From assembly GCA_030606585.1 (NCBI GenBank), contig JAUWGD010000002.1, positions 1 to 36,792 of the forward strand: DNA of 36,792 bases, in the 5' to 3' direction. Below are positions 5,460-28,707 of the stretch, one piece after another. Position 1 is the first letter of the stretch; the number at the start of each line of letters is the position of its first letter. The notes beneath the pieces were generated by a model. That model saw only the letters and a list, made by a program, of their open reading frames with translations. It was not told the DNA's origin and made no database searches. The DNA comes from Dehalococcoidales bacterium. GTDB lineage: Bacteria > Chloroflexota > Dehalococcoidia > Dehalococcoidales > RBG-16-60-22. Both the position numbers and the translations under genes were made by a program.

Positions 5460-5528
5460 AGTGCAATCTTACGTGTGAAAACCGATTATTAATAACTTAA
5501 GCTGTTAACTAGTAAAGGGGGATAGAAG

Positions 5529-6716: not shown

Positions 6717-6825
6717 AAACCCCGGGACTGCAGGCTGTTTCCTACCGCCCTTGCCTGCATTCCGACCTGATAAAACTAGACGAACCACCGCGTGCAACAT
6801 GCTTATGGCCTTAGGAGGATGAAGA

Positions 6826-7989: not shown

Positions 7990-8010
7990 TATACGGAAAG
8001 GAGTCTTACA

Positions 8011-9153: not shown

Positions 9154-9161
9154 TAAATAAC

Positions 9162-9190
9162 TTGATTTTTAACCGGATGGGTATTAAAAT
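9162..9190 (+). promoter_or_regulatory. possible internal sigma70 promoter
   Basis: TTGATT (9162..9167), a 17 nt spacer, then TAAAAT (9185..9190), in the 83 nt gap before the M24-like gene. Confidence 0.3.
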
Positions 9191-9236
9191 CACGTTGCCA
9201 TAAAGATAAAGGTTATCTCGGCAAAGGAGGGGTCTA

Positions 9237-10457
9237 ATGTCGAAATTCGCGGTACGACCTTTCGGCGGGCCGGAGGCGGTCGACTGGTCGGAGAGGATAA
9301 ACACCACCCGCATGAGGGAGGAAAGGCTGGCCAAAGCCCAGGCTTCCCTGAAGAAGCACGGTATAGCCGCCTGCCTGCTAATGCGTCCCGAGAACATGCG
9401 TTACGTGACCAGCACCAAAGCGGTAAATTTTATCGACCAGCTCAGATACACGGTAGCTTTTGCGGACCACGACCCCATAGTCTACGAGCTGCCCCCCGGC
9501 AACCTCTTCGGGGTGTGCCCCTGGGTTAAGCCGGAGAACCTCAAACTCGCTATCCTGTGGGCCGATGAAGCCTGCGGTCCGGCGGCCACCTGGGAAAGGG
9601 CCCAGAAATTCGCCCGGTCCATCAAGCAGGACTTGAAAGAAAAGGGCCTCGAAAAAGAAAAACTGGGCATTGATAAACTCGATGAACCCGGTCAGCAGGC
9701 GCTCAGGGAGGCCGGTATCGAGACCGTCGACGTTATGACGGCGATGCTGGAGGCGAGGGCGGTAAAGACAGAGGACGAGATTAACTGTATTATGATGGCG
9801 GTAGCCATATCCGAGGTCGGCTGGTACGCCCTTTACGAGGCTCTCAAGCCGGGTGTCCTGGGTCGGGACCTCATTGCCGCGGCTAATAAAGCCATGTACA
9901 GCGCCGGGGCTGAAGACGTCTGGGGAGTCCTGGGAGGCGCGCGCAACACCGGTATCGTACAGGTGGGCGATGTCATTACCGTGGACTTCTGCCGTATTAC
10001 CTACCTGGGATACAATACCTGTTATTACCGCAACATCATTTGCGGCCGCAAGCCCAACCAGAAAGAGATGGACATGCACAAACGGAGCTACGAACGGGTG
10101 TACAACGTCATCGAAGCTATCAAGCCCGGGGTCTCCACCGCCGACGTCGCCAAGCACTGGCTGCCCGCCAAGGACAGGGGCTACCCCACCGAGGAGTATA
10201 CCTGGTGCGAGGACTTAGCCCACGGCCTGGGCCTGTGGCTCTACGAATACCCCACCATCAACCGGCTCTGGTCGTTCGATTACCCCATGACGCTGGAAAA
10301 GGGCATGACCATGGCAGTAGAAGCCATGGAGGCTGACCCGGCGGTCGGCAGGACCAAACTCGAAGAGATGATAGTTATCGGCGATGAAGGCGCCGAGATT
10401 ATGACCAAGATGCCCGTCAAGGACATGATGATAGCAAGTCCCATAATCATAGCCTGA
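9237..10457 (+). CDS. M24 family creatinase/prolidase-fold protein (Xaa-Pro peptidase / creatinase-like)
   Basis: 406 aa. A creatinase/prolidase N-domain-like start (RMREERLAKAQASLKKHGIAACLLMRPENMRYVT) plus a pita-bread domain: GDVITVDF...GYNTCYYRN, AHGLGL, MTMAVEAM, LEEMIVI. AAAGGAGG RBS. Confidence 0.75.
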   Translation: MSKFAVRPFGGPEAVDWSERINTTRMREERLAKAQASLKKHGIAACLLMRPENMRYVTSTKAVNFIDQLRYTVAFADHDPIVYELPPGNLFGVCPWVKPENLKLAILWADEACGPAATWERAQKFARSIKQDLKEKGLEKEKLGIDKLDEPGQQALREAGIETVDVMTAMLEARAVKTEDEINCIMMAVAISEVGWYALYEALKPGVLGRDLIAAANKAMYSAGAEDVWGVLGGARNTGIVQVGDVITVDFCRITYLGYNTCYYRNIICGRKPNQKEMDMHKRSYERVYNVIEAIKPGVSTADVAKHWLPAKDRGYPTEEYTWCEDLAHGLGLWLYEYPTINRLWSFDYPMTLEKGMTMAVEAMEADPAVGRTKLEEMIVIGDEGAEIMTKMPVKDMMIASPIIIA

Positions 10458-10507
10458 CAAGCCCAACAGAGGCTTAAAGAATTGGATTTTAAAAAGGAGG
10501 TACTTTC

Positions 10508-11905
10508 ATGACTTACTCACAGGTTCCCAAGAGTTGGGATGGTGAAGCTGATGTTATCGTAGTTGGTGGTGGCAATACCGGTATACCGGCCGCCATTACG
10601 GCATACGACAAGGGAGCCAAGGTAATAGTGCTGGAGGCTTCTGGCGGTATGGCCAGTAGTCTGGCCATGATTGCCGGGGGAACGCCGTTTACCGGTACCG
10701 ACCTGCAGAAAGCCGAGGGTATTGAGGATTCCCCTGACAAACTGTATGAGGAAGCCGTCAAGGTTAGCGGTGGCGACCCGGAGCTCTGGAGAGCACTGGC
10801 AGACCGTCAGGAGGAAGTCTACGAATGGCTTAAATCCCTGGGTGCCAAACCAGAAAAAGTACTTCTGGCGCCGGGACACAAAGTAAGACGCTCTATTAAA
10901 TTTGAAGGCCATGGCCCCGCTCTCTGCAACATTCTCCGGAACGCCCTGAAAAAGTCGGGGATTGATGTCCGGTACAAGCATCGCGCCAGAAAACTGATCG
11001 TCGATAACGGCCGGGTCATCGGCATCACTGCCGAGTCTGGTGACAAAACTAATAGCTTCAAGGCCAGGAAAGCGGTTATTCTCGCCACCGGTGGCTTTTG
11101 TCAAAACTTGGACATCGTGAAGGAGTTTGGGCCGCAGTATGCTGATTTAGTTCCCACAGCGCCTAAAACCCATCAGGGTGACGGCCTGAAAATGGCTATG
11201 GGCATCGGCGCAGGGACGGATGGTCTGGGCTTGGCAGTATGTCCGTCCATGCCCGTAGGCGCCGAGACTCTTCAATTCGTAAATGCGGGCATACAGGGCG
11301 GCATTACCGTGGACAGGTACGGGAAGAGATTCGGTAATGAGGCGACAGAAGAACTAGGCACCTACACTGAAAAGCATAAGATATGTCTGGATCATGACCC
11401 AACCGGTCTGCACATTACTGTTTCCGACCAGGCGATAAAGGACCTCAATGAGCCGCCATCAACCACTACTCGCGAACCGATTTACAGGGTAGACACTATT
11501 GAGGAACTGGAGAAACAGCTCGGCATTCCCGCCGGAAACCTGAAGGCGACCGTTGACGAGTATAACTCGGATATCAAGAAGTACGGTTATGACAGGAAGT
11601 TCGGCCGGCGCCTGCAAGGAATGTACTGGCCGGATTTGCCGGTGATGAAACTGGATCACCCTCCGTTCTATGCTGTTAAAAACAAGATTTGCCTGACTTC
11701 GATGAAGGGCGGCTTGAAAATCAACGCGAAGTGCCAGATAATCGACCAGTTCGGCGATGTTATTCCAGGACTCTACGCAGCCGGGGAGATAGCCGGAGGC
11801 TTGGAGCGCATACCCCACCATTACTACACCGGAAGAATGACGATGCAAGCCTTCACCCAGGGAAGAATCGCCGGAGATGTTGCCGCCGACGAACCCGGCA
11901 GCTAG
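10508..11905 (+). CDS. FAD-dependent oxidoreductase, FAD_binding_2 family (soluble fumarate-reductase / 3-ketosteroid-dehydrogenase-like flavoprotein)
   Basis: Rossmann dinucleotide motif DVIVVGGGNTGIPAAITAYDKGAKVIVLEAS. Further motifs ILATGGF, HQGDGLKMAMGIGA, and C-terminal GLYAAGEIAGG...FTQGRIAG. AAAAGGAGG RBS. Confidence 0.75.
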   Translation: MTYSQVPKSWDGEADVIVVGGGNTGIPAAITAYDKGAKVIVLEASGGMASSLAMIAGGTPFTGTDLQKAEGIEDSPDKLYEEAVKVSGGDPELWRALADRQEEVYEWLKSLGAKPEKVLLAPGHKVRRSIKFEGHGPALCNILRNALKKSGIDVRYKHRARKLIVDNGRVIGITAESGDKTNSFKARKAVILATGGFCQNLDIVKEFGPQYADLVPTAPKTHQGDGLKMAMGIGAGTDGLGLAVCPSMPVGAETLQFVNAGIQGGITVDRYGKRFGNEATEELGTYTEKHKICLDHDPTGLHITVSDQAIKDLNEPPSTTTREPIYRVDTIEELEKQLGIPAGNLKATVDEYNSDIKKYGYDRKFGRRLQGMYWPDLPVMKLDHPPFYAVKNKICLTSMKGGLKINAKCQIIDQFGDVIPGLYAAGEIAGGLERIPHHYYTGRMTMQAFTQGRIAGDVAADEPGS

Positions 11906-11967
11906 GCATCCGTATAAAACTCACGCACCACCGGACATTTGAGGCGAGATAAAGAATTAAGATAATA

Positions 11968-13329
11968 ATGAAGTGGCAGGATAAGTACCGCGATAAGTTA
12001 ATAACGGCCAAAGAAGCGGCTGGACTGATAACCTCCGGCTCTGATGTCATCTTTGCCATGATGGACCAGCCCAAGGACATCATGGTAGAAACCGCCAATC
12101 GGGCCGGTGAGCTGGAGAATGTGACTTTAACCTCTCATTGGGTAGAGGATTTCCCTTTCCTCCACCCCAGCCAGTACCCTGAAATGGAAAAGGCGTTCCG
12201 TATCGTAGACCCCATGACCCTGAGGACCACCCGGGAAGAGATACGCAACAAGAAAATAGACTGGCAGCCGACCGTCTTCGGGCTGAGCAACGGCGAAAGG
12301 CAGCAGGACCCCGGCAGGGGGAGATTATACCACTATAAAGACATCTTCTACTTCAAGCTCACCCCTCCCGATGAAAACGGCCGCTGCAGCTTCGGGCCGC
12401 ATCCCTGGTACACGCCCACCGTTTGCCGGACCGCCAGGGTAAAAGTCGCCGAAATCGACCCGCGTCTTACGTGGGTTCACGGTGAATATGTCAACATAGA
12501 CGACATCGACTATCTTGTCGAAGCGCCCGATGAGGCAGACCTCAGGGGCAAGGAAATCCTGGGCATGACGCCGTCTGACGAAGAGTGGGAGCTATCCCAG
12601 GTCATCGGCGCCAATGCCGCCTCCCTGGTCAACGACGGCGATACCGTACAGATTGGCGTGGGCACCGCCGCCGAAGCGATTATGGGCTTCATGGCTGAGA
12701 AAAATGACCTCGGTATCGATAGCGAGGTAATCTATTCCCAGACGATAGACCTGGTCAAGCGCGGCGTTATCACCGGAAAATATAAAACCCATGACACCGG
12801 GCAGGTAACCGCCGCCAACCTCCAGCTCTACGGCTATGACAATCCCATAAGCATCGAGTCCCGCGAATATGTCAGAGACAACCCGGCATTTTTATTCCGG
12901 GATATCTCCACGCAGTGCAGCGTCCCCAGAATCGCCGCGCAGGAAAATATGGTAGCTATCAATAACATCCTGACGGTTGACCTCCTGGGACAGGTTGTCA
13001 TTACTCATCTCGGCTCAACTCCGATTACCGGTCCCGGGGGACAGGTGGACTTCTGCGTCGGCGCGCATTATTCCAAAGGTGGTCGCTCCATATCCATGTT
13101 GAAGTCGACCGCGCTGGACGGGAAGGTATCGCGGATAGTGCCAAAGTTCGATGCCGGCACGGTGATAATGATTCCCATGGTTTACCTCGACTACCTGGTT
13201 ACCGAATATGGAATCGCCAACCTCGACTGCAAGAGCCGGCGGGAGAGGGCAGAGGCTGTTATCTCGGTAGCCCACCCCGATTTCCGGGATGAGTTGAGGC
13301 AAGCCGCCAAGGAAATGTTCTACCCGTAG
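11968..13329 (+). CDS. acetyl-CoA hydrolase/transferase family protein, 4-hydroxybutyrate CoA-transferase-like
   Basis: 453 aa. N-terminus KLITAKEAAGLITSGSDVIF and the family signature TGPGGQVDFCVGAHYSKGGRSI. The RBS is weak. Confidence 0.8.
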   Translation: MKWQDKYRDKLITAKEAAGLITSGSDVIFAMMDQPKDIMVETANRAGELENVTLTSHWVEDFPFLHPSQYPEMEKAFRIVDPMTLRTTREEIRNKKIDWQPTVFGLSNGERQQDPGRGRLYHYKDIFYFKLTPPDENGRCSFGPHPWYTPTVCRTARVKVAEIDPRLTWVHGEYVNIDDIDYLVEAPDEADLRGKEILGMTPSDEEWELSQVIGANAASLVNDGDTVQIGVGTAAEAIMGFMAEKNDLGIDSEVIYSQTIDLVKRGVITGKYKTHDTGQVTAANLQLYGYDNPISIESREYVRDNPAFLFRDISTQCSVPRIAAQENMVAINNILTVDLLGQVVITHLGSTPITGPGGQVDFCVGAHYSKGGRSISMLKSTALDGKVSRIVPKFDAGTVIMIPMVYLDYLVTEYGIANLDCKSRRERAEAVISVAHPDFRDELRQAAKEMFYP

Positions 13330-13458
13330 TATTATGACACGAGGTGTTATAGTGCTAATATATAAAGGTGTAATTATTATATGGTTAAAATCAGTACCCG
13401 GGTTAATATAATTACCTGAGAATTATTTACCTGTTAAAAACTGAGGAGGTAGGAAATA

Positions 13459-14919
13459 GTGCAGATAAAACAAAAGTTAACCAAGATAGTCGGTGCCGCA
13501 AATGTTTCCGACGACCCCGGAGCACTTCTATCTTATTCCAGGGACTGTAGTCTCAGTACTCCTCGCATGCCCAATTACATAGCCAGACCGAAGAATACGG
13601 AAGAGGTGCAGGCTGTCATCAAGCTGGCCAACGAAAGCGGGGTACCGGTCGTCCCCTGCAGTTCGGGCATACACTTCTACGGAAACACCATTCCCAATAT
13701 GGGCGGTATTGTGCTGGATATGAGGAGGATGAACAAAATTCTGGACGTCGACCTGGACAATAAAATGGTGCGGGTCGAGCCCGGCGTTACCTGGGGGCAA
13801 TTGCAAGCAGAAACGGCGAAGTATAAAATGATGGGCCTCGGTCCGCTGCTGCCCCACCCCCTCAAGTCCGTGCTGACCAGCCACCTGGAAAGGGAACCGA
13901 TGCTGATACCCAAGTTCGAGTATGCCGGCAGCATGGTAACCGTGGAAGTGGTCTTCGCCGACGGCCAGGCGTTCCGAACCGGTTCAGCCTGCGTGCCCGG
14001 TTTTCCCGATAAAAGCATGGCTGAGGGTGTTAATCCCGGTGGACCGGGTTATCTGTCTTATCAGTGGCTCGTTCAGGGTGCTCAGGGAACTATGGGAGTG
14101 GTAACCTGGGCAAAGGTCAAGATGGCACCCAAGCCCAGGATAGACAAGACATTCTTCATTCCATTTGAACAGCTCGATGACGCCGTACAGATGGTTTACA
14201 GCATACAGCGGCGTATGATAGGTGAAGAATGCCTCATATTGAATGACGTAAACCTGGCCGCTATCCTGGCCAAGAAGTGGCCCGCGGATTATGAAAATCT
14301 CAAGAGAGTACTGGCGCCCTGGACCGTTATCCTGGTCTCCGGCGGCGGATGGAGACGCCCCGAAGAAAAAATAGAATACGAGGAAGACGGGCTGCGCGAA
14401 GCGGCTGCCGAACTGCATATCCCTGAACTGCCGACATCGCTGCCCGGGCTGCCCGGTATTGAAAGAGAACTCCCGGGAATCCTGCGCAATGCCTGGCCTG
14501 AGAAAAAGCCCTACTGGAAGTTTGCCGCCAAAGGTGCTTCTCAGGATGTTTTCTTTTATACGACGATGGACCGGGCATCCGAATTTACCCAGGTCCTGAG
14601 CCAGGTAGCTGCCGAAAGTGGCTATTGTATCGACGATATTGGCGTCTATGTACAACCCATGGAGTACGGACGTTCCTGTCACTTTGAATGCAGCTTCCCC
14701 TACAACCCGAACAATGGCGATGAAGTGGCGATAGTCAGTAACCTGTACGCCGAGGCTGCCGAGACCGCACTTGGTCTGGGCGGTTATTTCTCCAGACCGT
14801 ACGGCATCATAGCCGATATGGTCTACGAAAGAGCCGGGGGTTATTCAGCTGCTATGAAAAAAGTCAAGAAAATACTCGACCCCAATAATATCATGTCGCC
14901 CGGCAGACTATGCTTCTAG
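13459..14919 (+). CDS. FAD-binding PCMH-type oxidase/dehydrogenase (GlcD-like), trio copy 1 subunit A
   Basis: GTG start after GAGGAGG. Motifs: IVGAANVSDDP, EEVQAVIKLANESGVPVVP, MNKILDVDLDNKMVRVEPGVTWGQL. C-terminal FAD-oxidase tail ILDPNNIMSPGRLCF. Confidence 0.8.
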   Translation: MQIKQKLTKIVGAANVSDDPGALLSYSRDCSLSTPRMPNYIARPKNTEEVQAVIKLANESGVPVVPCSSGIHFYGNTIPNMGGIVLDMRRMNKILDVDLDNKMVRVEPGVTWGQLQAETAKYKMMGLGPLLPHPLKSVLTSHLEREPMLIPKFEYAGSMVTVEVVFADGQAFRTGSACVPGFPDKSMAEGVNPGGPGYLSYQWLVQGAQGTMGVVTWAKVKMAPKPRIDKTFFIPFEQLDDAVQMVYSIQRRMIGEECLILNDVNLAAILAKKWPADYENLKRVLAPWTVILVSGGGWRRPEEKIEYEEDGLREAAAELHIPELPTSLPGLPGIERELPGILRNAWPEKKPYWKFAAKGASQDVFFYTTMDRASEFTQVLSQVAAESGYCIDDIGVYVQPMEYGRSCHFECSFPYNPNNGDEVAIVSNLYAEAAETALGLGGYFSRPYGIIADMVYERAGGYSAAMKKVKKILDPNNIMSPGRLCF

Positions 14920-14950
14920 TTCAAATTAGATAATGTAAGTAGGTGAAAAA

Positions 14951-16210
14951 ATGTTGAAAGTTGAAGAATATAAGCATCAAGCATCGACATGTGTCAGGTG
15001 CAGCTACTGCAAGATGGTCGACCTTAACTGGGTAAAAAGCAGCCGGTTTTCACGACAGTGCCCGATTGACGTGAGATACAGATACAATCTTTATTCAGGT
15101 CACGGGCTCCTCCACGCGGCCCTGGCCGAGCTGGACGGCAAGCTGGACTTTACCCCGAAGCTCATGGACGCCCTGTGGCACTGCACACTTTGCGGCGGCT
15201 GCGATATAAGGTGTAAAAGGAACCTGGATGTAGAGGTACTCCAGGTAATCGAGACGCTGAGATGCCGGTGTGTCGAACAGGGGAACACCCTGCCCGAGCA
15301 CAAGATGCTGGCCGCTAATGTAAAGAAAAGCCACAATATATACGGCGCCGCCCACGGAACCCGCTTCAAATGGATGCCGAAAGACGTCAAGCCGGCTGCC
15401 AAAGCGGACATTCTCTATTTCGTCGGCGACCCGTCGTGTTACCGGCACCCGGAAATTGCCCAGGCTACCGTAACGCTGCTGAGCAAAGCCGGGATTAAGT
15501 TCATGGTACTGAAGGACGAATGGAGCAGCGGCCACGAACTGTTCGCCACGGCTCAACTGGAACTGGCGAAAGAAATGGCGGAGCATAATATTCAAGCCAT
15601 CAAGAACTCCGGCGTCAAGACGGTAATAACCAGCGACGCCGAAGCCTACAAGACACTCAAGGTGGACTATCCTAAGATTCTGGAAAAGTCCACTGAGGAT
15701 ATGCCTTATACCGTCCTGCACATCACGGAATATATAGACCAGCTGATGCAAGACGGTAAAATAAAGTTCAACCGGAAAGTCGCCATGAAGGTAACCTACC
15801 ATGACCCCTGCAACCTCGGCCGACTCGCCGACCCGTGGTATCACTGGGAACCGAAGTATGAATCGCCGAACATCGCCGTGGGTAAAAAGTGGCGGCGCGG
15901 GTACGACGGCATTTATGAGCCGCCGCGGAATATTCTCAAAGGGATAAGGGGAATAGAGCTTATCGAAATGGACAGGCACCATGATAATGCCTGGTGCTGC
16001 GGCTACGGCGGCGGTGTCGGGGTGGCTTTCCCTGACGACGCTATGTGGACGGCCGGTGAGCGGACGGAAGAAGCCCAACTAACCGGCGCCGAGGCCATAG
16101 TAAGCTGCTGTCCCAACTGTAAGGACATCCTCGGTCAGGCCGCTGAGGCGGATAGTACCGGGATGAAAGTTTATGATATTACCGAAGTAATGCTTCGGGC
16201 AATCAGGTAG
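14951..16210 (+). CDS. (Fe-S)-binding protein with ferredoxin-type Cys motifs and CCG domains (HdrD/GlcF-like), trio copy 1
   Basis: CVRCSYCK...CP and CTLCGGCDIRC motifs. The second CCG domain is intact (YHDPCNLGR, AWCCGYGGG, SCCPNCKD). The first CCG domain is degenerate (see findings). Confidence 0.8.
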   Translation: MLKVEEYKHQASTCVRCSYCKMVDLNWVKSSRFSRQCPIDVRYRYNLYSGHGLLHAALAELDGKLDFTPKLMDALWHCTLCGGCDIRCKRNLDVEVLQVIETLRCRCVEQGNTLPEHKMLAANVKKSHNIYGAAHGTRFKWMPKDVKPAAKADILYFVGDPSCYRHPEIAQATVTLLSKAGIKFMVLKDEWSSGHELFATAQLELAKEMAEHNIQAIKNSGVKTVITSDAEAYKTLKVDYPKILEKSTEDMPYTVLHITEYIDQLMQDGKIKFNRKVAMKVTYHDPCNLGRLADPWYHWEPKYESPNIAVGKKWRRGYDGIYEPPRNILKGIRGIELIEMDRHHDNAWCCGYGGGVGVAFPDDAMWTAGERTEEAQLTGAEAIVSCCPNCKDILGQAAEADSTGMKVYDITEVMLRAIR

Positions 16211-16232
16211 AATAAGATTAAAGGAGATAACG

Positions 16233-17711
16233 ATGAGCATACCTAAAGAAGCTTATCAGACACTGCAATCCATTGTCGGGCCCGAATGGGTTAGTGATGA
16301 CCCGGCCATCTGTGAAGCCGACCGCTACTGTAGTCTGTCCGACCCTACCGATGAAAAACGCCGGCCCGGATGCAGCATCGAGCCGTCCAGCACCGATGAG
16401 GTACAGGCTATCGTCAAAGTAGCCAACCGGTACAAGCTGCCCTTCGTGGTTACCAGTACTTTCTACAGTTCCGGTACCTACGCCAGGAAGGAAAACTCCA
16501 TCCTCATCGATTTGAAGCGGATGAATAAGCTCGAGATAGATGAGAAAAACCAGTACGCTATTGTCGAGCCGGGAGTGACCTTCTCCGCCCTTCAGGCAGA
16601 CCTGTTTAAGATGGGACTTTGTACCTTCGTGCCGGGATGCGGCGGCCAGGCTTCCGTCGTAGCCAATACGGTCAATATGGGTGATGCTCCTATCGGCTGG
16701 AGGCACGGCCTCGGTTATCAGCGGCTGCTGGGCGTCGAGTGGGTGCTGCCCGAGGGTGATATACTGAAGATGGGCTCGCTTTCAAATGCGAATGATTTCT
16801 TCTGGGGCGAGGGACCCGGTCCCGACCTGCGCGGTCTGCTGCGGGGATGCGCCGGCCACCAGTCGAAGCTCGGGATTATCACCCGGATTGGCGTCAAGGT
16901 ATTCCCCTTCATTTCCGAAGAGCTCGAACCGTCCGGCTGGTCATACCATACCACCATGATGTTACCGACCAACAGGTTTAAATGGTATAATATCCGTTTT
17001 TACTCCCACGAGGATATCATCAATGCCATGTTCGAAATAGGCCGGTGTGAGATAGCTCTGGTGGTAATGACGGTACCCCCGATATTCAGGGGTGTCGCCA
17101 GGAGCAGGGGTGTGGGCTGCGGCGGGTTCTGGGAGTACTGGAAGGAAGCGGGACCCAAGCTCGCGCGGAAGCAGGAAGACCTCAGGGTATTGCTGTATGG
17201 TATCGGTTCAGACAAACGCCTGGAATACGAAGAGAAGGTTTTGCTGGATATAGTCAAGGATTTCAACGGCTCGGCCCGTGAAGCGCCCTGCCAGGATGAA
17301 ACGAACTTCATGGCCGCCGATGCCATCTGCGCTAATGTCGTCGGGGGGAGGTTCGCTTCCGAGGTCTCTTACGAGTCCATCAACCAGGCCACGAGGTACA
17401 GCAAGGAAGTCGATAAAATAACGGACGCACATAGACCTCCGATATTGCAGGAATACAACACCACGGACTGGATTTGCCCTTATGAACTTGGATATGTCGC
17501 CAAGATGGAATGCCTGCGTATGGCGGCCGCTGAAGATAATTATGCGCTGCAGGAGTGGAAGCGCGACGTCGAGGTAGTCTGCGCCGAAAGAGGCGCTTAC
17601 GCACTGGTACCCAATAGTGACGTTTTCGGTCCCGTCTGGGGGAACTACCCTGAAAAAGAAGATAAAATCAGGGCAGCCTTTGACCCTAACCACGTTTCTT
17701 CTCCTGAATAG
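16233..17711 (+). CDS. FAD-binding PCMH-type oxidase family protein, trio copy 1 subunit B
   Basis: AAAGGAG RBS. Motifs: KEAYQTLQSIVGPEWVSDDPA, DEVQAIVKVANRYKLPF, MNKLEIDEKNQYAIVEPGVTF, LLGVEWVLPEGDILKMGS, GPGPDLRGLLRG. C-terminal IRAAFDPNHV. Confidence 0.75.
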   Translation: MSIPKEAYQTLQSIVGPEWVSDDPAICEADRYCSLSDPTDEKRRPGCSIEPSSTDEVQAIVKVANRYKLPFVVTSTFYSSGTYARKENSILIDLKRMNKLEIDEKNQYAIVEPGVTFSALQADLFKMGLCTFVPGCGGQASVVANTVNMGDAPIGWRHGLGYQRLLGVEWVLPEGDILKMGSLSNANDFFWGEGPGPDLRGLLRGCAGHQSKLGIITRIGVKVFPFISEELEPSGWSYHTTMMLPTNRFKWYNIRFYSHEDIINAMFEIGRCEIALVVMTVPPIFRGVARSRGVGCGGFWEYWKEAGPKLARKQEDLRVLLYGIGSDKRLEYEEKVLLDIVKDFNGSAREAPCQDETNFMAADAICANVVGGRFASEVSYESINQATRYSKEVDKITDAHRPPILQEYNTTDWICPYELGYVAKMECLRMAAAEDNYALQEWKRDVEVVCAERGAYALVPNSDVFGPVWGNYPEKEDKIRAAFDPNHVSSPE

Positions 17712-17738
17712 GCGACTGGCCTGTAAAAAGGAGGCGAT

Positions 17739-19205
17739 ATGTTAAAGACAGCGCGTGAGTATACAGAAAGTCTGCGCCAGCTGAAACTGAACCTTTATCT
17801 GCTTGGCGAAAAGGTCGAGGACTGGGTTGATGAACCCATCATCAAGCCGTCAACCAATGCGGTAGCCATGACCTACAAGCTCGCCCACGAACCCGAAAAC
17901 GAGGCCCTGGCCGTCACGGAGTCCATGCTCACGGGGAAGAAGGTCAACAGGTTCATCTCCCTCTTCAAGAGCCCCGACGATATGGTCAGAAAAATTAAAC
18001 TGCAGAGAGAGCTGGGGCAGAGGACGGCCTGCTGCTTCCAGAGGTGTGTCGGCATGGACGGCATCAATGCTACCTTCAGCACTACTTTTGAAATCGATGA
18101 GAAATTCGGTACCGATTATCACCAGAGGTTTAAAAAATGGCTCGAATATATCCAGGAGAATGACCTGACTGTTGCCGGGGCCATGACCGATGTCAAGGGA
18201 CACCGCGGCGTGGCGCCCAGCCAGCAGAAAGACCCGGATATGTTCGTCCACATCTCCGAACGCCGGGATGACGGTATCATCATCCGTGGGGGCAAGGCCA
18301 ATATCACCGGGACAATAAATTCGCACGAGATGCTGCTCATGCCCACCCTCAGGATGCGGGAGGACGATAAAGACTACGCCGTCTGCTGTGCGGTACCCAC
18401 CGATGCCAAAGGGATAACCCACATCTATGGCCGGCAGTCCTGCGACACCCGCAAGCTGGAGGAAGGCGATATTGATGTCGGTAACTACGGCTTCGGCGGA
18501 CAAGAGACCCTGACCGTCTTCGAGGATGTCTTCGTCCCCTGGGAACGGGTCTTCATGAGCGGCGAATATGATTTCGCCATCATGCTGGTGGAACGTTTCG
18601 CCGCCTATCACCGACAGAGCTACGGCGGCTGCAAACCCGGCATCGCCGATGTCCTCATCGGTGCCACCGCCTCCATGGCCGATTACAACGGTGTGCGCCG
18701 GGCGGCTCATATCAGGGAAAAAATCGGGGAAATGATTCACCTCTCCGAGACAATACACGCCTGCGGTCTTGCCAGTGCCCACGAGGCCTGGAAGACCAAG
18801 GCGGGTAACTACCAGGCTCATATACTCCTGGCTAATGTATGCAAGCACAATACGACCAGATTCCCCTACGAGATAACCCGGCTTGCCGAGGACATCGCCG
18901 GGGGCATACTGGTCACCACCCCCTCCGAGAAGGACTTCAGACACCCGGAGATAGGAAAAATTATTGACAAGTACCTTAAAGGCGACCCCGCTTACTCCAC
19001 GGAGGAACGCTATCGCATGCTGTCGCTTATACACGCCATGTGCTTTGGCGTGGTGGCGCCCAGTTATCATACCGAGTCGATGCATGGCGCCGGTTCGCCG
19101 CAGGCGCAAAAGATTATGATTGAGCGCGAGACAGACATGGAGGCTAAACAACGCTTTGCCCGCAGTATCGCGGGCATCGATACACGAGAAGACCCGCTCG
19201 GTTAA
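17739..19205 (+). CDS. abfD: 4-hydroxybutyryl-CoA dehydratase / vinylacetyl-CoA delta-isomerase
   Basis: 488 aa. Alignable end to end with my recollection of Clostridium aminobutyricum AbfD: VAMTYKLA, CCFQRCVGMDG, YIQENDLTVAGAMTD, IYGRQSCDTRK, VERFAAYHRQSYGGCK, LLANVCKHNTTRFPYEITRLAEDIAGG, TESMHGAGSPQAQKIMI. Cluster ligands are present: C99, C103, H291, C298. AAAAGGAGG RBS. Confidence 0.9.
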   Translation: MLKTAREYTESLRQLKLNLYLLGEKVEDWVDEPIIKPSTNAVAMTYKLAHEPENEALAVTESMLTGKKVNRFISLFKSPDDMVRKIKLQRELGQRTACCFQRCVGMDGINATFSTTFEIDEKFGTDYHQRFKKWLEYIQENDLTVAGAMTDVKGHRGVAPSQQKDPDMFVHISERRDDGIIIRGGKANITGTINSHEMLLMPTLRMREDDKDYAVCCAVPTDAKGITHIYGRQSCDTRKLEEGDIDVGNYGFGGQETLTVFEDVFVPWERVFMSGEYDFAIMLVERFAAYHRQSYGGCKPGIADVLIGATASMADYNGVRRAAHIREKIGEMIHLSETIHACGLASAHEAWKTKAGNYQAHILLANVCKHNTTRFPYEITRLAEDIAGGILVTTPSEKDFRHPEIGKIIDKYLKGDPAYSTEERYRMLSLIHAMCFGVVAPSYHTESMHGAGSPQAQKIMIERETDMEAKQRFARSIAGIDTREDPLG

Positions 19206-19227
19206 ACCCGGGAAAGGAGGCGACATT

Positions 19228-20421
19228 ATGTCTTACTTTCTGAGTCCTAAAAAAATCCTGTTCGGAAAAAACATGTTGAGGAGGTTGGGCGCCGAGCTTG
19301 AAGGCCGCGGCAATAAAGCCATTTTAATTACAGATAAAAACATGGTCAAGCTCAGCGGAGAACTTGTCGAGGCGGTCAAGGCTGCCGGATACGAGGTTAA
19401 TATCTGGGACGGAGCGGAGCCGGAACCTTCGACGGCGGGCGCCATCGAGGCCGGCAAGTTGCTAAAAGAGTTCAAACCCCAGCTGGTTATCGGGTTCGGC
19501 GGGGGTTCGGTGCTGGACACGGCCAAAGCAGCCTGGGTGCTCTATGAGAACGCGGAAATCGTCCCGGAAGAAATCACGTCCGTTAATGTAAAGTCAAAAC
19601 TGAGCCCGCAGAAGAAAGCCAGATTCATGACCGTCCCTACCACCAGCGGCACCGGCTCGGATGTCACCTGGGCTATCGTGCTCTCGGAGGCCGCCGAACA
19701 CCGCAAGGTTGGCTTCGCCAACACGGAAATAGTGCCCGATATTACGCTGCTGGTCCCCGAATTTACCGCCGGCATGCCCAGGGCGCTGACGGCCAGCACC
19801 GGTCTGGACGTTCTGGGGCACGCCCTCGACGGATACACCGCCAGGCAGCAGACCGATTTCAGTGACGGACTCTGCCTGCAGGCCATGAAGCTGGCCTTCG
19901 AGTGGCTTCCCAGGGCCTGCGCCAACGGAGAAGACCTCGTCGCCAGGGAGAAAATGCAGAACGCCGCCACCGTGGCCGGTCTGGGATTCGGCAACAGCAA
20001 TACCTCACTCTGCCATGCCCTGGCACATACGCTCGGTGCTACTTTTAACATACCTCACGGTCGCTCCGTAGGCATAACATTACCTTACTCGCTGGAATAT
20101 ATCGCCGCCAATCCCGCCATCGAGGGGGCTCCCGACCCGGTGGAGAGGCTCAGCACCGCCGCCAGATTTGCCGGTATTAAAGATGAATCAGACCAAGCAG
20201 CCATTAAAAAGCTGATTCAGAAATTAAGAGACCTGGCGAAGGAAACGGGTGAGCCGCTGAGCCTGAAGGAAGCCGGCATCACGGAACAGCAGATGAACGA
20301 TAACCTGGACACCCTGGTCACCCTCGCCGGCAACGATGTCAATATGTACTCCAGTCCCTGCGAATGCCAGGACGAGAAGCTCCGCCAGCTCTTCCAGGAC
20401 ATCTGGAAAGGGACGATTTAA
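19228..20421 (+). CDS. iron-containing (group III) alcohol dehydrogenase, candidate 4-hydroxybutyrate dehydrogenase
   Basis: From ORF 19120..20421, trimmed to the ATG at 19228, which follows GGAAAGGAGG (19211..19220). The upstream part of the ORF overlaps the abfD 3' end. Fe-ADH motifs: GFGGGSVLDTAKA, PTTSGTGS, and the metal-His region LCHALAHTLGATFNIPHG. Confidence 0.85.
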   Translation: MSYFLSPKKILFGKNMLRRLGAELEGRGNKAILITDKNMVKLSGELVEAVKAAGYEVNIWDGAEPEPSTAGAIEAGKLLKEFKPQLVIGFGGGSVLDTAKAAWVLYENAEIVPEEITSVNVKSKLSPQKKARFMTVPTTSGTGSDVTWAIVLSEAAEHRKVGFANTEIVPDITLLVPEFTAGMPRALTASTGLDVLGHALDGYTARQQTDFSDGLCLQAMKLAFEWLPRACANGEDLVAREKMQNAATVAGLGFGNSNTSLCHALAHTLGATFNIPHGRSVGITLPYSLEYIAANPAIEGAPDPVERLSTAARFAGIKDESDQAAIKKLIQKLRDLAKETGEPLSLKEAGITEQQMNDNLDTLVTLAGNDVNMYSSPCECQDEKLRQLFQDIWKGTI

Positions 20422-20430
20422 AAACAGTTC

Positions 20431-20504
20431 GTCATTGCGAGCGTAGTGAAGCAATCCGCTACCCTGACAACGGATTGCTGCGGCACTTCGTGCCTCGCAA
20501 TGAC
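20431..20504. repeat. intergenic nested-palindrome (REP/MITE-like) element, GTCATTGCGAG...CTCGCAATGAC type
   Basis: Outer inverted repeat: GTCATTGCGAG (20431..20441) with CTCGCAATGAC (20494..20504). Inner inverted repeat: AGCAATCCG (20450..20458) with CGGATTGCT (20471..20479). It lies in the 125 nt gap after the ADH stop. Confidence 0.7.
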
Positions 20505-20546
20505 ATCGGGGATTCGGATTAAGGAGAAAATTAAGGAGCAATAGAT

Positions 20547-21407
20547 ATGCCTGTTTGCCAGGCTAACGGCATTAACATTAATTACAGGGTATATGGCGAG
20601 GGGTTCCCCCTGGTCTTAAGCCATCCCTTCTCAGCCAGCCTGGAGTTCTGGGCAAACCTGATTCAAAGCCTGCCGCCTCAATACCAGGTTATTGCCTATG
20701 ATGTCCGTGGCCACGGCCTGTCCTCAGCGCCGGCCGGGGAGGAGAATTACACTCTGGATATCCTCGTGGAAGACCTGCATCACCTGCTGGAACATTTAAA
20801 AATAGAGAAAGCTTATATCGGCGGCCTTTCGCTGGGCGGCGCCATATCGCTGGGTTACGCCGGCCGCCACCCCGAGACCGTAAAAGCCCTGCTTATCTTC
20901 GATATTCACGGCGGCTTTTCCCCGCCTGCCGACCCCGCTATGAAGGCCGCCATGGCCGAGGGGCGGGAAAAGGGTGAAAAGTACGCCATGGAAAGAGGCA
21001 TGGCCGATTTCGCCCGGCGGCAGCTTGCCACCGGGTCCGCTTTCCCCCCCGTCCCCGACGACGAAGCCCTTCAGGAGCAATACGTCGAAAGAATGGCAAA
21101 ATTCCCGGTTAACGGGTATATCGGCGTCGGCCGGGCCTCGCCCTGGGAAGAAGAATGGCAGCGCGAAGTGGCCGACAATGTGAGTGTAGCCACCCTGATA
21201 ACCGTCGGCAGCGACGACCTGCCCATGGTAGTATCGGGCACGAGTATATTACACGAGCACATCAAGGGTTCGCGCTACGTGGTGATAAAGGGCTCCGTTC
21301 ATGAAACGGCGCGGTGGCGCCCCGATGCATTCAATCAGGCTGTTATCGAGTTTCTCGATGCGGTAGAGGCGGGCAAACCGGTGGCGGGAGAAATGACCCT
21401 GGGCTAA
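20547..21407 (+). CDS. alpha/beta-fold hydrolase (3-oxoadipate enol-lactonase / C-C hydrolase-like)
   Basis: 286 aa. Motifs: INYRVYGEGFPLVLSHP, YDVRGHGLS, the nucleophile elbow GLSLGG, and a C-terminal His in GSVHE. AAGGAG RBS. Confidence 0.8.
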   Translation: MPVCQANGININYRVYGEGFPLVLSHPFSASLEFWANLIQSLPPQYQVIAYDVRGHGLSSAPAGEENYTLDILVEDLHHLLEHLKIEKAYIGGLSLGGAISLGYAGRHPETVKALLIFDIHGGFSPPADPAMKAAMAEGREKGEKYAMERGMADFARRQLATGSAFPPVPDDEALQEQYVERMAKFPVNGYIGVGRASPWEEEWQREVADNVSVATLITVGSDDLPMVVSGTSILHEHIKGSRYVVIKGSVHETARWRPDAFNQAVIEFLDAVEAGKPVAGEMTLG

Positions 21408-21518
21408 GATACCGACAGCCGTTAGCTATAAATTATAAAAACATGCCGTTTATTGATTGGTGCAATCGGTAGCCCGATTATGATAATATTAAGCAAATTC
21501 TAAACCTGTGGAGGCAAA

Positions 21519-24158
21519 ATGGTACCGAATAACAGTAACCCCGGAAGAGCAGCCAAGGGTGAGAAAAGTGTTTGTAAAGGGCTTGGTTTCTGCTCGATAT
21601 CAGGGGACGCGAATTCCTCTGTCGTTGATGTCAAAGATGGAAAAATCGTCAGGATTAGACCGCTGCACTATGACTGGAAATATAAACCAGAAGAATTCAA
21701 CCCGTGGAAGATGGAGGCGCGCGGTCAGACTTTCGAGCCCAGCATGAAATCGTTAATCGGGCCTTTCAGCCTGGCTTACAAGAAGCGGGCTTTATCCCCC
21801 AACCGGATTCTGTATCCGCTAAAGAGAGTCGATTGGGACCCCAACGGAGAAAGAAATACCCAGAATCGCGGGAAGAGCGGCTATGTTAGAATCTCCTGGG
21901 ATGAAGCCCTGGATATAATCGCCAGCGAGATAAAGAGGTTAAATAATAAATACGGGCCTACCACCATACTTGCCCAGGCGGACGGTCACGGGGAGACAAA
22001 AACCGTACACGCCGCCCACGGCTGCCAGAGAAGGCTCCTCGACCTCCTGGGGGGATATACCATACAGATGAGGAACCCGGACAGCTGGGAGGGGTGGTAC
22101 TGGGGCGCCAAGCATACCTGGGGATGCGAAAACCTGGGCCAGATGTATCCTTTGACCAATGTGATACCGGATATTTGCGACCACTCGGAGGTTGTACTGT
22201 TCTGGGGCTGTGACATGGAGACCACCCCCTGGGGCTGGCAGGGACAGCTGCCCAGCCGGTTATGCTATTGGTTCACCGAGCTGGGAATAAAGCAGTTATA
22301 CATCTGCCCGGACCTCAACTACGGGGCGGCGGTCCATGCCGATAAATGGATACCCATTAGACCCAATACCGATGCCGCCATGCGCCTGGCCATAGCCTGG
22401 GTCTGGCTTACCGAAGGCACCTATGATAAAGAGTATATCAAGACACATGCCTTCGGATTCGACAAATTCGCGGATTACGTCCTGGGTAAGGAGGACGGGG
22501 TACCCAAGACACCCAGGTGGGCGGAAGACAAGTCCGGGGTTCCCTCCCGGATTATCAAAGCTCTGGCCAGGGAATGGGCCTCCAAAGCGACATCTATAGC
22601 GCACGGCAACGGCGGTTCCTCCATCAGGGGCCCTTACTCGACCGAACCCGCCAGGATTGAGGTCTTGCTGCTGGGCATGCAGGGACTTGGTAAGCCCGGC
22701 GCGCACTTTGTAAAAATGATTGAATGGGGCCTGTTCTTCGACCCGGGCTGGTATCCCATGCCCAGTCCCAAAGAGCTGCCGGACGTTAATGCCGCCGGCC
22801 ACGGGCAGCGGGTAGGCAGCCCGGCGGTGCAGAGGGGAGTGGCTGCTGATGGTGAAGAACTGGAGCATTTCCCCAAATCGTTCATACCCAAGACCCTCAT
22901 TCACGATGCCATCCTTAATCCTCCCCTCACCTGGTACGGTACCACCAGCGCCGGTTTCCCGCGCGACGACCAGTTTGTCCAGTATAAATACCCCGCCGAC
23001 GGTTGTGCTGAAATCCACATGATATGGTCCGATACGCCCTGCTTGCTGACATGCTGGAACGACAGCAACAGCGTCGCCAAAGCGTACCAGAGCCCGAAAA
23101 TCGAGTTCATGCTGGTGCAGCATCCCTGGATGGAGAACGACTGTCTCTTCGCCGATATCCTTCTGCCCGTCAATACCAAGTTCGAGGAAGAGGATATCGC
23201 CACGGATAACTTCAGCGGCCAGTTCAGTACCATCATGTATGAGGACCAATGCATTGAACCCAAAGGTGAGTCCAAGACCGACTACGAGGTAGTCTGTATG
23301 ATAGCCGAGAAGATGGGTCTGCTGAAAGAATACACCAGGGGCAGGTCAATAAAAGAGTGGATAAAGTTCGGCTTTGACCATGCGGAAATCTCCCCCGCGA
23401 TAAGCTATGAAGAACTAAAGGAGAAAGGCTATTTCGTTTTACCCACCGACCCGGACTGGAAGAAGAAAGAGGTCGGCTTGAGTGGTTTCGCTAAAGACCC
23501 GGTGAAAAACCCGCTGAATACTCCTTCCGGTAAGATTGAATTCTATTCCCAGAGTCTCGCGGAGCACTTCCCTGACGATGACGAGAGACCGCCGGTTCCC
23601 CACTGGATTGAAAAGGGCTCGGGCCACGATGAAAGCGTTTCCAGCGTCAGGACTAAAGACTACCCCCTGCTCATAATATCCAACCACGGCCGCTGGAGGG
23701 TGCATGCCAATCTCGATGATATCAGCTGGTTCCATGAAATCGAAACCTGTAAAGTCATCGGGGCGGACGGGTACCATTATGAGCCTATCTGGATTCACCC
23801 GACAGATGCTGAAGAGAGGGGCATCGCCCACGGAGACGTGGTTAACGTATTCAACGAGAGGGGCGGTGTTCTCGTGGGCGCTTACTTGACGGAGAGAATA
23901 ATGCCCGGCACTGTTTACGTAGACCACGGAGCCCGGTACGACCCGATAGTCGTCGGTGAGCTTGACAGGGGAGGCGCCATCAATACCATTTCCCCACACA
24001 GCATTACCTCCAGGAACTGCGCCGGGATGGCTACCAGCGGCTACCTGGTGGAAGTAGCGACCGTCGACCTGGACGAAATGAGGAGGCAGTACCCCGAAGC
24101 CTTCAACAGGCCGTACGATAAGGCTACCGGGCAACTTATAGAGCGAGTCATGGTTTAA
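21519..24158 (+). CDS. pyrogallol hydroxytransferase (transhydroxylase) large-subunit-like bis-MGD Mo enzyme, AthL / resorcinol-hydroxylase family
   Basis: 879 aa. No N-terminal Fe-S Cys motif and no Tat signal, as in AthL. Blocks match my recollection of P. acidigallici AthL: VDVKDGKIVRIRP, WKMEARGQTFEPS, DPNGERN, RISWDEALDIIASEIKRL, NPDSWEGWYWG, YDKEYIKTHAFGFDKFADYVLGKEDGVPKTPRWAEDKSGVPSRIIKALAREWA, CIEPKGESKTDYEV, TPSGKIEF, RGGAINTI. GGAGG RBS. Confidence 0.85.
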   Translation: MVPNNSNPGRAAKGEKSVCKGLGFCSISGDANSSVVDVKDGKIVRIRPLHYDWKYKPEEFNPWKMEARGQTFEPSMKSLIGPFSLAYKKRALSPNRILYPLKRVDWDPNGERNTQNRGKSGYVRISWDEALDIIASEIKRLNNKYGPTTILAQADGHGETKTVHAAHGCQRRLLDLLGGYTIQMRNPDSWEGWYWGAKHTWGCENLGQMYPLTNVIPDICDHSEVVLFWGCDMETTPWGWQGQLPSRLCYWFTELGIKQLYICPDLNYGAAVHADKWIPIRPNTDAAMRLAIAWVWLTEGTYDKEYIKTHAFGFDKFADYVLGKEDGVPKTPRWAEDKSGVPSRIIKALAREWASKATSIAHGNGGSSIRGPYSTEPARIEVLLLGMQGLGKPGAHFVKMIEWGLFFDPGWYPMPSPKELPDVNAAGHGQRVGSPAVQRGVAADGEELEHFPKSFIPKTLIHDAILNPPLTWYGTTSAGFPRDDQFVQYKYPADGCAEIHMIWSDTPCLLTCWNDSNSVAKAYQSPKIEFMLVQHPWMENDCLFADILLPVNTKFEEEDIATDNFSGQFSTIMYEDQCIEPKGESKTDYEVVCMIAEKMGLLKEYTRGRSIKEWIKFGFDHAEISPAISYEELKEKGYFVLPTDPDWKKKEVGLSGFAKDPVKNPLNTPSGKIEFYSQSLAEHFPDDDERPPVPHWIEKGSGHDESVSSVRTKDYPLLIISNHGRWRVHANLDDISWFHEIETCKVIGADGYHYEPIWIHPTDAEERGIAHGDVVNVFNERGGVLVGAYLTERIMPGTVYVDHGARYDPIVVGELDRGGAINTISPHSITSRNCAGMATSGYLVEVATVDLDEMRRQYPEAFNRPYDKATGQLIERVMV

Positions 24159-24204
24159 AAAGCTCCCGCTCGTTTTCCTAAAGTAAATACGGAACTTCCC
24201 CGCT

Positions 24205-24300
24205 GTCATTCCCGCGCAGGCGGGAATCCAGAGGAGGAGTGGTGGTCTGGATTCTCGGGTCAAGCCTTCAGGCTGACTCAGGCTGAAGCCCGAGAATGAC
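24205..24300. repeat. intergenic nested-palindrome (REP/MITE-like) element, GTCATTCCCGCG...GAGAATGAC type
   Basis: Outer: GTCATTC (24205..24211) with GAATGAC (24294..24300). Hairpin: CCCGC-gcag-GCGGG (24211..24224). Further pairs: GAATCCAGA (24224..24232) with TCTGGATTC (24246..24254), and CTCGGG (24254..24259) with CCCGAG (24289..24294). Confidence 0.7.
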
Positions 24301-24333
24301 ATTATAAGACTATCTCGGTGAGGTATAACGGGA

Positions 24334-28689: not shown

Positions 28690-28707
28690 GTCTCAATCCT
28701 TCCCTTG

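Follow-up and report, generated by a model that had tools for sequence, protein, structure and literature searches.

Positions 11,968 to 20,421 of a 36,792-nucleotide stretch of DNA (the window) from an uncultured cold-seep Dehalococcoidales bacterium carry genes for a CoA-transferase, for a trio of two flavoproteins and one Fe-S protein, for a 4-hydroxybutyryl-CoA dehydratase (AbfD) and for an iron-dependent alcohol dehydrogenase (Fe-ADH). On balance, these genes appear to be the central part of a conserved catabolic operon, about 20 kb long, which extends from a DUF35 gene to UbiX, rather than a clostridial-type 4-aminobutyrate pathway with an insertion. The new element is the recurrent operonic coupling of AbfD and Fe-ADH with the trio family in subsurface Dehalococcoidia; the individual families are known and the trio was noticed recently. 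The initial annotation of the stretch had presented the trio as an interruption of a 4-hydroxybutyrate gene set. It is instead the most constant partner of the block, and not an insertion.

The block comprises six open reading frames (ORFs), all on the + strand; the positions and one-strand placement of the transferase, AbfD and Fe-ADH were re-derived as annotated. The Pfam domains of the six products are, in order, AcetylCoA_hyd_C; FAD_binding_4 and FAD-oxidase_C; Fer4_8 and CCG; FAD_binding_4; HpaB_N and HpaB; and Fe-ADH. The features of the block are as follows.

11968..13329, + strand: divergent family-I CoA-transferase of the AbfT/Cat2 (4-hydroxybutyrate CoA-transferase) structural family, by homology to PDB structures
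13330..13458, + strand: AT-rich intergenic region of 129 nt between the CoA-transferase and the trio, a possible internal promoter or boundary
13459..14919, + strand: trio subunit A, flavoprotein with FAD_binding_4 and a partial FAD-oxidase_C (Pfam), probable catalytic subunit
14951..16210, + strand: trio subunit B, HdrD/GlcF-like Fe-S protein with two CxxCxxC motifs of the ferredoxin type and two CCG domains, of which the first is degenerate and the second intact (Pfam Fer4_8 and CCG)
16233..17711, + strand: trio subunit C, flavoprotein in which only FAD_binding_4 is recognisable (Pfam)
17739..19205, + strand: 4-hydroxybutyryl-CoA dehydratase / vinylacetyl-CoA isomerase (AbfD), by PDB homology and conserved residues
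19228..20421, + strand: group III iron-dependent alcohol dehydrogenase (Pfam Fe-ADH and ADH_Fe_C)
20431..20504, no strand assigned: palindromic GTCATT...AATGAC element in the 125-nt gap past the Fe-ADH gene, a possible transcript end or stabiliser

The dehydratase, the alcohol dehydrogenase and the CoA-transferase

To judge from its sequence, the product of 17739-19205 is very probably a true [4Fe-4S]/FAD enzyme of the 4-hydroxybutyryl-CoA dehydratase type and not a monooxygenase-type relative of HpaB. It matches the Clostridium aminobutyricum enzyme (1U8V) over the whole length with 659.6 bits (E 2.2e-197) and the Nitrosopumilus enzyme (6VJR), also full length, with 609.8 bits (E 2.8e-182), whereas the best HpaB match, the 4-hydroxyphenylacetate hydroxylase 2YYK, reaches only 133.9 bits (E 6e-38), a gap of roughly 500 bits. 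The ligands of the [4Fe-4S] cluster are present as annotated, C99 and C103 in the motif CCFQRC and H291 and C298 in YHRQSYGGC, and align to C99, C103, H292 and C299 of 1U8V. T190, E256, Y295, K299 and E446 align to T190, E257, Y296, K300 and E455 of the same structure, which we take to be its active-site residues. Cluster and active-site residues are kept in all collected orthologues of at least 51% identity, and deviations are confined to paralogues of 34-40%. With these scores and conserved ligands, AbfD does not group with the cluster-less monooxygenases, and its designation as a bona fide dehydratase stands.

Fe-ADH is intact, with GGGS at residues 91-94 and the metal ligands D194, H198, H263 and H277 present. 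The assignment to group III holds; the narrower assignment to the 4-hydroxybutyrate dehydrogenase type does not, since the protein scores 160.6 on the corresponding model NF058672, against a cut-off of 500, and lies closest to the alcohol dehydrogenase domain of AdhE (structure 3ZDR, 246 bits; model NF010378, 289.3 bits). Candidate substrates are succinic semialdehyde/4-hydroxybutyrate or another aldehyde/alcohol pair, and specificity for 4-hydroxybutyrate is somewhat doubtful.

The CoA-transferase aligns over its full length with 3EH7 (E 1.1e-64) and with AbfT itself (3GK7, E 5.5e-56), at 193-222 bits. Its E253, in GIDSEV, is aligned with E238 in GIHSEM of 3GK7, presumably the catalytic glutamate of AbfT. 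The protein stays under every NCBIfam equivalog cut-off; the best score is 177 bits against a cut-off of 674.8.

The flavoprotein trio

The three genes at 13459-17711 probably encode a distinct, conserved, heterotrimeric flavoenzyme. More than 70 loci, spread over several phyla, all show the gene order FAD, FeS, FAD, and at least 554 trio-related stretches are present in a species-level genome set. Metagenome-assembled genomes (MAGs) which bear the trio belong to Dehalococcoidia, Desulfobacterota (Desulfatiglans, Desulfonema magnum, Desulfarculus), Bathyarchaeia, Hecatellales, Acidobacteriota and Spirochaetes. The usual neighbours are AMP-forming ligases, TetR regulators, acyl-CoA dehydrogenases (ACADs), ECH and 3HCDH proteins, family III CoA-transferases and pairs of thiolase and DUF35 genes. 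In three Desulfobacterota MAGs (L095:4718-11602, L097:4741-11602 and L071:4928-11602) an AMP-forming ligase and the trio form a compact set followed by unrelated genes (GlnRS); a TetR regulator stands between ligase and trio in L095 and L097.

The window holds two trio copies, and in neither does a flavoprotein carry the metal motif HxGDGNxH...EHG; because this site is missing the trio is not a 2-hydroxyacid dehydrogenase. The suggestion that it acts on a 4-hydroxybutyrate-related compound gained no support: the metal site of the 2-hydroxyacid dehydrogenases is lacking, and the family is generally flanked by genes of acyl-CoA metabolism. Scores on the glycolate oxidase models are 106 for GlcD (cut-off 567.9), 23.4 for GlcE (cut-off 284) and 22 for GlcF (cut-off 333). 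Two specific identities were rejected. GlcDEF or another D-2-hydroxyacid dehydrogenase (D-lactate dehydrogenase, D2HGDH) does not agree with the absent metal motif, with Glc scores far under the cut-offs, or with a fold nearest to that of vanillyl-alcohol oxidase and p-cresol methylhydroxylase (VAO/PCMH). A HOT-type system, in which Fe-ADH would be the transhydrogenase and the trio a D-2-hydroxyglutarate dehydrogenase, was ruled out by the missing HxGDGNxH/EHG site.

The AlphaFold2 model of subunit A (pLDDT 88) has the two-domain VAO fold. In Foldseek searches it matched VAO/PCMH-type 4-phenol oxidising enzymes first (8S7x (8S7P), 7PBG, 1DII, 5FXD and 1VAO; TMq 0.77-0.80, E about 1e-28 to 1e-30) and D-lactate dehydrogenase second (TMq 0.69-0.72). 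The PDB matches of subunit C are likewise mostly of the VAO/PCMH type and span only its N-terminal roughly 225 residues. Subunits A and C are predicted to form a heterodimer. The modelled pair scores 0.94, compared with 0.00 for the best control, different runs share at least 97% of their contacts, and the partner pLDDT is at least 86; the mark applied is reached by 58 of 80 solved complexes and by 2 of 110 mismatched pairs.

In the first CCG domain of subunit B the cysteines C163, C198, C199, C235 and C238 (numbering of the second trio copy) are replaced by D, S, S, D and A. These first-CCG cysteines are lost in the window clade and in the loci L023 and L024. In L027, L045, L046, L050, L053 and L056 it is mainly the cysteines of the second CCG domain that are lost, and those of the first in part, while in most members from Desulfobacterota and archaea few or none have been lost. 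Of 35 Fe-S subunit sequences, all but three retain the two ferredoxin-type motifs. The 1.76-Mb genome holds at least five paralogous FAD/FeS/FAD trios, two on contig C147 and one each on C200, C63 and C144. Those other than the trio described here (C200:9714-14047, C63:21502-25775, C144:22032-24817 and window 27016-31477) are of the second-copy type with both CCG domains intact, and the trio of C200 lies immediately downstream of two gene pairs for electron transfer flavoprotein (ETF).

The architecture of the trio matches that of the heterotrimeric flavoprotein family of anaerobic benzene degraders. In benzene-grown anaerobes no protein is more abundant than the members of that family, namely BzS1_12970/80/90 (PMC13416013) and, in Ca. 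Anaerobenzenivorax ORM2a, the 'Magic' proteins #24-26 (PMC13101534). The two papers, of 2026, propose this flavoprotein as the starter of anaerobic benzene degradation and describe GlcDEF- and PCMH-like affinities and degenerate cysteine motifs (PMC13101534, PMC13416013); in the Fe-S protein of ORM2a two motifs are without cysteines (PMC13101534). According to Musat et al., distant syntenic homologues probably serve other functions (PMC13101534, PMC13416013). The trio of the window shares 36-40% identity in subunit C and 41-49% in subunit A with its relatives in Desulfobacterota MAGs. Two of these, L095 and L097, were considered as carriers of the 'Magic' synteny; their order of AMP-ligase, TetR and trio, and then unrelated genes, is similar to the ORM2a layout and not identical with it.

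Gene linkage and the 20-kb operon

The trio, AbfD and Fe-ADH stand in direct succession in all 13 close relatives whose contigs reach far enough. Together with the window clade, four distinct arrangements which combine the trio, AbfD and Fe-ADH were found in Dehalococcoidia. The other three are as follows.

L023: trio, AthL-like, AthL-like, AbfD, ADH
L025 (448-18941): trio, DUF6282, two small ORFs, DUF362, AbfD, ADH, BKACE, 3HCDH
L056 (3913-18148): 3HCDH, ECH-like, cupin, SDR, trio, BKACE, ECH, ECH, 3HCDH, AbfD, ADH

Fe-ADH follows AbfD in every one of the four. Identity to the window falls in parallel, from L023 (AbfD 83%, Fe-ADH 71%, trio subunit C 69%) through L025 (74%, 66% and 54%) to L056 (72%, 66% and 46%), which points to long co-inheritance with rearrangement in between and argues for selection keeping the genes together. 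The trio is probably linked functionally to the AbfD-ADH pair, and there are fairly good grounds to place both in one pathway. A literature search found no paper describing AbfD linked to the flavoprotein family of the trio.

In L056:3913-18148, L027:6325-20947 and L025:448-18941 the trio lies among genes for SDR, cupin, BKACE, 3HCDH, ECH and S15 (CocE/NonD-type) hydrolase proteins. This gene set is reminiscent of anaerobic phloroglucinol degradation, namely of its reductase, dehydrogenase and TAL steps, with the known cyclohydrolase missing; BKACE and 3HCDH constitute the TAL/TfD pair which finishes that pathway (PMC10470551). A different, compact AbfD module is found in G125 (L110:5555-12277), where DUF169 genes enclose an AbfD of 77% identity, and genes for an MFS transporter and an AMP-forming acyl-CoA ligase come next.

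The spacing of the genes is close. The gaps from the trio through AbfD to Fe-ADH measure 31, 22, 27 and 22 nt in order, exactly as annotated, although the 129-nt gap between transferase and trio had gone unlisted. A GGAGG motif resembling a ribosome-binding site precedes five of the six ORFs, the exception being the CoA-transferase. Within 13330-13458 a short hairpin lies immediately past the CoA-transferase stop codon, and a sequence scan located sigma-70-like, promoter-like sites at 13334-13361 and 13385-13412. The sequence of this gap is kept in three genomes of the genus. In the relative G014 a palindromic element is inserted at the same junction (locus L014, about 5470-5620), and the junction measures no more than 24 nt in L023 and 18 nt in L024, both of them more distant. 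The best promoter-like site of the region is at 4911-4939, after a MarR gene and upstream of the DUF35 gene.

On the other side of the block, 20422-20546 folds into a long hairpin, with an energy of -37.4 kcal/mol and a modest z-score of -1.9. A terminator scan gave no convincing intrinsic terminator in 4000-23900, the count being below shuffle expectation, and an Rfam scan of the window gave no family reaching the gathering threshold. The only two gaps of any size lie on either side of the genes at 13459-20421, which may thus be a sub-operon within a larger unit, and from this layout we infer that the five would work as one. Palindromic elements of the GTCATTCCCGCG... type fill the larger intergenic gaps of the window (20431-20504, 24205-24300) and look like small mobile repeats of the REP/MITE kind. 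All sequencing runs listed as carrying 11968-20421 are DNA runs from cold seeps, out of two studies, and none is an RNA run.

The adjacency might also be a by-product of a shuffled catabolic island, with the trio and AbfD-ADH in different pathways and sharing a promoter region only. The CoA-transferase, the FAD_binding_2 protein, molybdenum (Mo) enzymes, trio, ADH and AbfD are reshuffled among Dehalococcoidia operons, the paralogous trios of the genome occupy other contexts, and mobile-looking palindromes sit in the intergenic gaps. This explanation is nevertheless quite unlikely in view of the 22-31 nt gaps, the ribosome-binding site before each gene, and an association that persists across four arrangements, even where trio subunit C is only 46% identical.

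The larger catabolic operon includes the following further genes, assigned with Pfam/NCBIfam.

5022-5459, + strand: DUF35/ChsH2-OB protein
5529-6716, + strand: Ltp-type thiolase-like protein
6826-7989 and 8011-9153, + strand: tandem acyl-CoA dehydrogenases
9237-10457, + strand: M24 creatinase/DddP-like protein
10508-11905, + strand: FAD_binding_2 flavoprotein
20547-21407, + strand: alpha/beta hydrolase
21519-24158, + strand: AthL-like molybdoenzyme
24334-24906, + strand: UbiX

The full order, DUF35, thiolase-like, ACAD, ACAD, M24, FAD_binding_2, CoA-transferase, trio, AbfD, ADH, hydrolase, (AthL-like), UbiX, is kept in the genus and in a second genus. The upstream part (5022-11905) is kept in G001, G004, G008, G014 and the metagenome loci L023 and L024, and the downstream part (20547-24906) in G001, G008 and G014, the last without the AthL-like gene. 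A distant Chloroflexota MAG has the operon with small changes and in two paralogous copies, of which one lacks AbfD-ADH.

The tandem ACADs are PimC/PimD- or AcrC-like and not of the Bcd type. On the 'lipid-transfer protein' model PRK06059 (cut-off 424) the thiolase-like protein reaches 418.9, and its DUF35 partner weakly matches BbsA; by sequence, the two are apparently an Ltp/BbsAB-like pair rather than a degradative thiolase. Around the operon there are UbiD/UbiX, URO-D-like, AthL-like and acetylene-hydratase/catechol-dehydroxylase-like genes and a second trio with an aldehyde dehydrogenase (ALDH). These surrounding genes point to phenolic substrates or, more broadly, to the anaerobic catabolism of phenolic or alicyclic compounds. 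The ALDH (25378-26871, - strand) was considered as a succinic semialdehyde dehydrogenase and rejected, since it scores above the cut-off for CoA-acylating methylmalonate-semialdehyde dehydrogenase (520.9, cut-off 448.5). Elsewhere, at C21:2501-12889, a URO-D-like gene 47% identical to window 33867-35201 is directly followed by a lone flavoprotein like trio subunit C, and a paralogue of the acetylene-hydratase-like Mo enzyme lies further along the same contig.

The initial annotation had seen no aminotransferase, ETF, Bcd or crotonase gene. None of ETF, crotonase and aminotransferase is indeed present in the window, but the two ACAD genes, which are not of the Bcd type, had been overlooked. The genome search that it proposed for crotonase and Bcd-Etf yielded seven ECH and ten ETF matches outside the window, as well as four strong 3HCDH matches, with an ECH-3HCDH pair on C179; with these genes crotonyl-CoA can be processed to acetyl-CoA. 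BKACE was not detected in the genome, which is 85.8% complete.

If 4-aminobutyrate or succinate were fermented in the classical way known from Clostridium aminobutyricum or C. kluyveri, this would account for the presence of AbfD, an AbfT-family transferase and Fe-ADH. Such a fermentation is very improbable: the window is devoid of an aminotransferase, succinyl-CoA reductase and Bcd-Etf, the only class III aminotransferase found in the genome lies on another contig, and the operon is dominated by unrelated catabolic genes.

Proposed pathway and related systems

In the pathway proposed for the operon, the flavoprotein would perform an oxygen-independent dehydrogenation or a water-dependent hydroxylation on an upstream intermediate, which probably derives from a phenolic or alicyclic compound and is handled as the acid or CoA ester, and the electrons would exit via the Fe-S subunit of the trio. 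Fe-ADH would interconvert the aldehyde and alcohol of the pathway, the most economical guess being succinic semialdehyde to 4-hydroxybutyrate. The AbfT-family transferase, or in relatives perhaps a BKACE-type enzyme or an AMP-forming ligase, would supply the CoA ester. AbfD would dehydrate the 4-hydroxyacyl-CoA to crotonyl-CoA, which a crotonase, a 3-hydroxyacyl-CoA dehydrogenase and a thiolase encoded elsewhere would convert to acetyl-CoA.

Several observations weigh against this pathway and the gene partnership on which it is built. Most trios occur without AbfD, and the link between the two is not obligatory. Conversely, of 400 other Chloroflexota genomes, evenly sampled, 10 have AbfD orthologues of 51-78% identity, as do G029 and G034, and in none of these does a trio, ADH or AbfT-like transferase lie near AbfD; AbfD thus does not need the trio. 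Orthologues of Fe-ADH, 66-68% identical, directly follow trios without AbfD in L046 and L050, so that Fe-ADH may have the trio as its functional partner no less than AbfD. The CoA-transferase travels with the trio and not with AbfD: it is found with the trio and the upstream block in L024 and L050, where AbfD is missing, is absent from the AbfD-bearing operons L025 and L056, and is separated from the trio in the window by the promoter-like gap. Because of this distribution its specificity for 4-hydroxybutyrate is possible but not indicated by context, and such an assignment is tentative. No producer of succinic semialdehyde or 4-hydroxybutyrate was identified, the opposite-strand ALDH being of the methylmalonate-semialdehyde type. 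The likeness of the trio to the BzS1 and ORM2a proteins is one of architecture, gene order, motif decay and context, compared by description, and the A-C heterodimer prediction may in part reflect the known homodimers of the VAO/PCMH superfamily.

The same observations bear on the description of the block as a complete gene set, of which the AbfD part stands; Fe-ADH falls short of the 4-hydroxybutyrate dehydrogenase model and follows AbfD-less trios, and the transferase co-varies with the trio across a promoter-like gap. The three enzymes could still constitute a self-contained route from 4-hydroxybutyrate to crotonyl-CoA, with the trio acting on a related metabolite or as a redox partner. All three enzyme families are encoded on one strand, the transferase retains its catalytic Glu, the trio recurs with AbfD, and AbfD beside Fe-ADH presumably mirrors the clostridial abfD/abfH and 4hbD neighbourhoods. 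The catalysis of AbfD is, however, redox-neutral and needs no external partner. The trio has no hydroxyacid-dehydrogenase metal site and mostly occurs without AbfD, the transferase and the ADH are both found with trios in AbfD-less operons, and the ADH fails its model. A self-contained route is accordingly unlikely.

The AbfD reaction is reversible, and the enzyme might work in a reversed or different flux, either from crotonyl-CoA via 4-hydroxybutyryl-CoA and, through the ADH, succinic semialdehyde to succinate, or in the dehydration of a longer 4-hydroxyacyl-CoA from ring cleavage. The crotonyl-CoA could stem from acetoacetyl-CoA, for instance from ring-cleavage products. In agreement with this, relatives place AbfD-ADH after BKACE, ECH and 3HCDH genes, which handle acetoacetyl-, 3-hydroxybutyryl- and crotonyl-CoA, BKACE and 3HCDH being the phloroglucinol pair TAL/TfD (PMC10470551), and AthL-like, UbiD/UbiX and URO-D-like genes surround the block. 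On the other hand, all substrate-site residues of AbfD equal those of the clostridial enzyme, which favours a C4 substrate; no succinic semialdehyde dehydrogenase was identified nearby; and BKACE was not detected in the incomplete genome. A reversed or different flux is thus improbable as well, and the catabolic operon with AbfD running towards crotonyl-CoA is retained as the preferred reading.

If so, AbfD, a rare radical enzyme to judge from the sampled Chloroflexota genomes, is wired here into a catabolic operon of abundant uncultured subsurface bacteria, and a 4-hydroxybutyryl-CoA branch is added to the inferred carbon metabolism of cold-seep Dehalococcoidia. Its most constant neighbour belongs to the heterotrimeric flavoprotein family which became prominent in 2026 as the candidate benzene-activating enzyme of anaerobes. 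The coupling to aldehyde/alcohol interconversion and 4-hydroxyacyl-CoA dehydration narrows the possible products of the flavoprotein, and the operon is an experimentally easier entry point to the family than slow-growing benzene cultures.

As first proposed, the genes stand in a context unlike that of clostridial fermentation or of the archaeal cycles, namely in a catabolic operon. With the archaeal 3-hydroxypropionate/4-hydroxybutyrate and dicarboxylate/4-hydroxybutyrate cycles (Nitrosopumilus, 6VJR) the window shares a full-length AbfD; a 4-hydroxybutyrate-CoA ligase and genes of CO2 fixation are lacking from it. The sets of C. aminobutyricum (abfD/abfT/abfH), C. kluyveri and Porphyromonas gingivalis are alike in the AbfD ligands and active-site residues, in the transferase family and its Glu, and in an Fe-ADH directly after abfD. 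Here, in contrast, the transferase is divergent, the ADH is nearer to AdhE, there is no aminotransferase, SucD or Bcd-Etf, and the genes are embedded with the trio, ACADs, the thiolase-like and DUF35 pair, the M24 protein and a Mo enzyme.

Among flavoenzymes, E. coli GlcDEF, D-lactate dehydrogenase (D-LDH), D2HGDH and YdiJ resemble the trio in two FAD_binding_4 subunits and a CCG-type Fe-S subunit, with weak N-terminal homology; GlcDEF differs in that the Fe-S gene of the trio sits between its two flavoprotein genes. p-Cresol methylhydroxylase and vanillyl-alcohol/eugenol oxidase (1DII, 8S7P, 5FXD, 1VAO) are the best structural matches of subunit A, at about 20% identity, and by sequence they also rank among the top matches of subunits A and C, in alignments that cover the FAD domain only. 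These 4-phenol-oxidising enzymes pass electrons to cytochrome c or O2, whereas the trio would pass them to its HdrD-like Fe-S subunit.

The flavoprotein of the benzene degraders is alike in more respects: the gene order FAD, FeS, FAD is common to both, subunit A combines a PCMH-type FAD domain with a FAD-linked oxidase C-domain, subunit C has the FAD domain only, the Fe-S subunit carries ferredoxin-type and cysteine-rich motifs, some of them degenerate, and the neighbours are acyl-CoA-metabolising. The 'type-1' trio of Dehalococcoidia might even be a close functional cousin which carries out an oxygen-independent, PCMH-like dehydrogenation or hydroxylation and yields an aldehyde or 4-hydroxyacyl intermediate for Fe-ADH and AbfD. 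This idea is speculative and unlikely; if true, it would make the operon a benzene-free, genetically compact model for the chemistry of the family. Such an intermediate could come from the ring cleavage of a hydroxylated aromatic; hydroxyhydroquinone is one example, and its anaerobic breakdown to "acetate plus an unknown C4 compound" has to our knowledge never been resolved. The two systems differ in their hosts, Desulfobacterota and Pelotomaculum for the benzene degraders and cold-seep Dehalococcoidales here, and in the partners of the trio, which in the window, unlike in the benzene degraders, are AbfD, Fe-ADH and the AbfT-like transferase.

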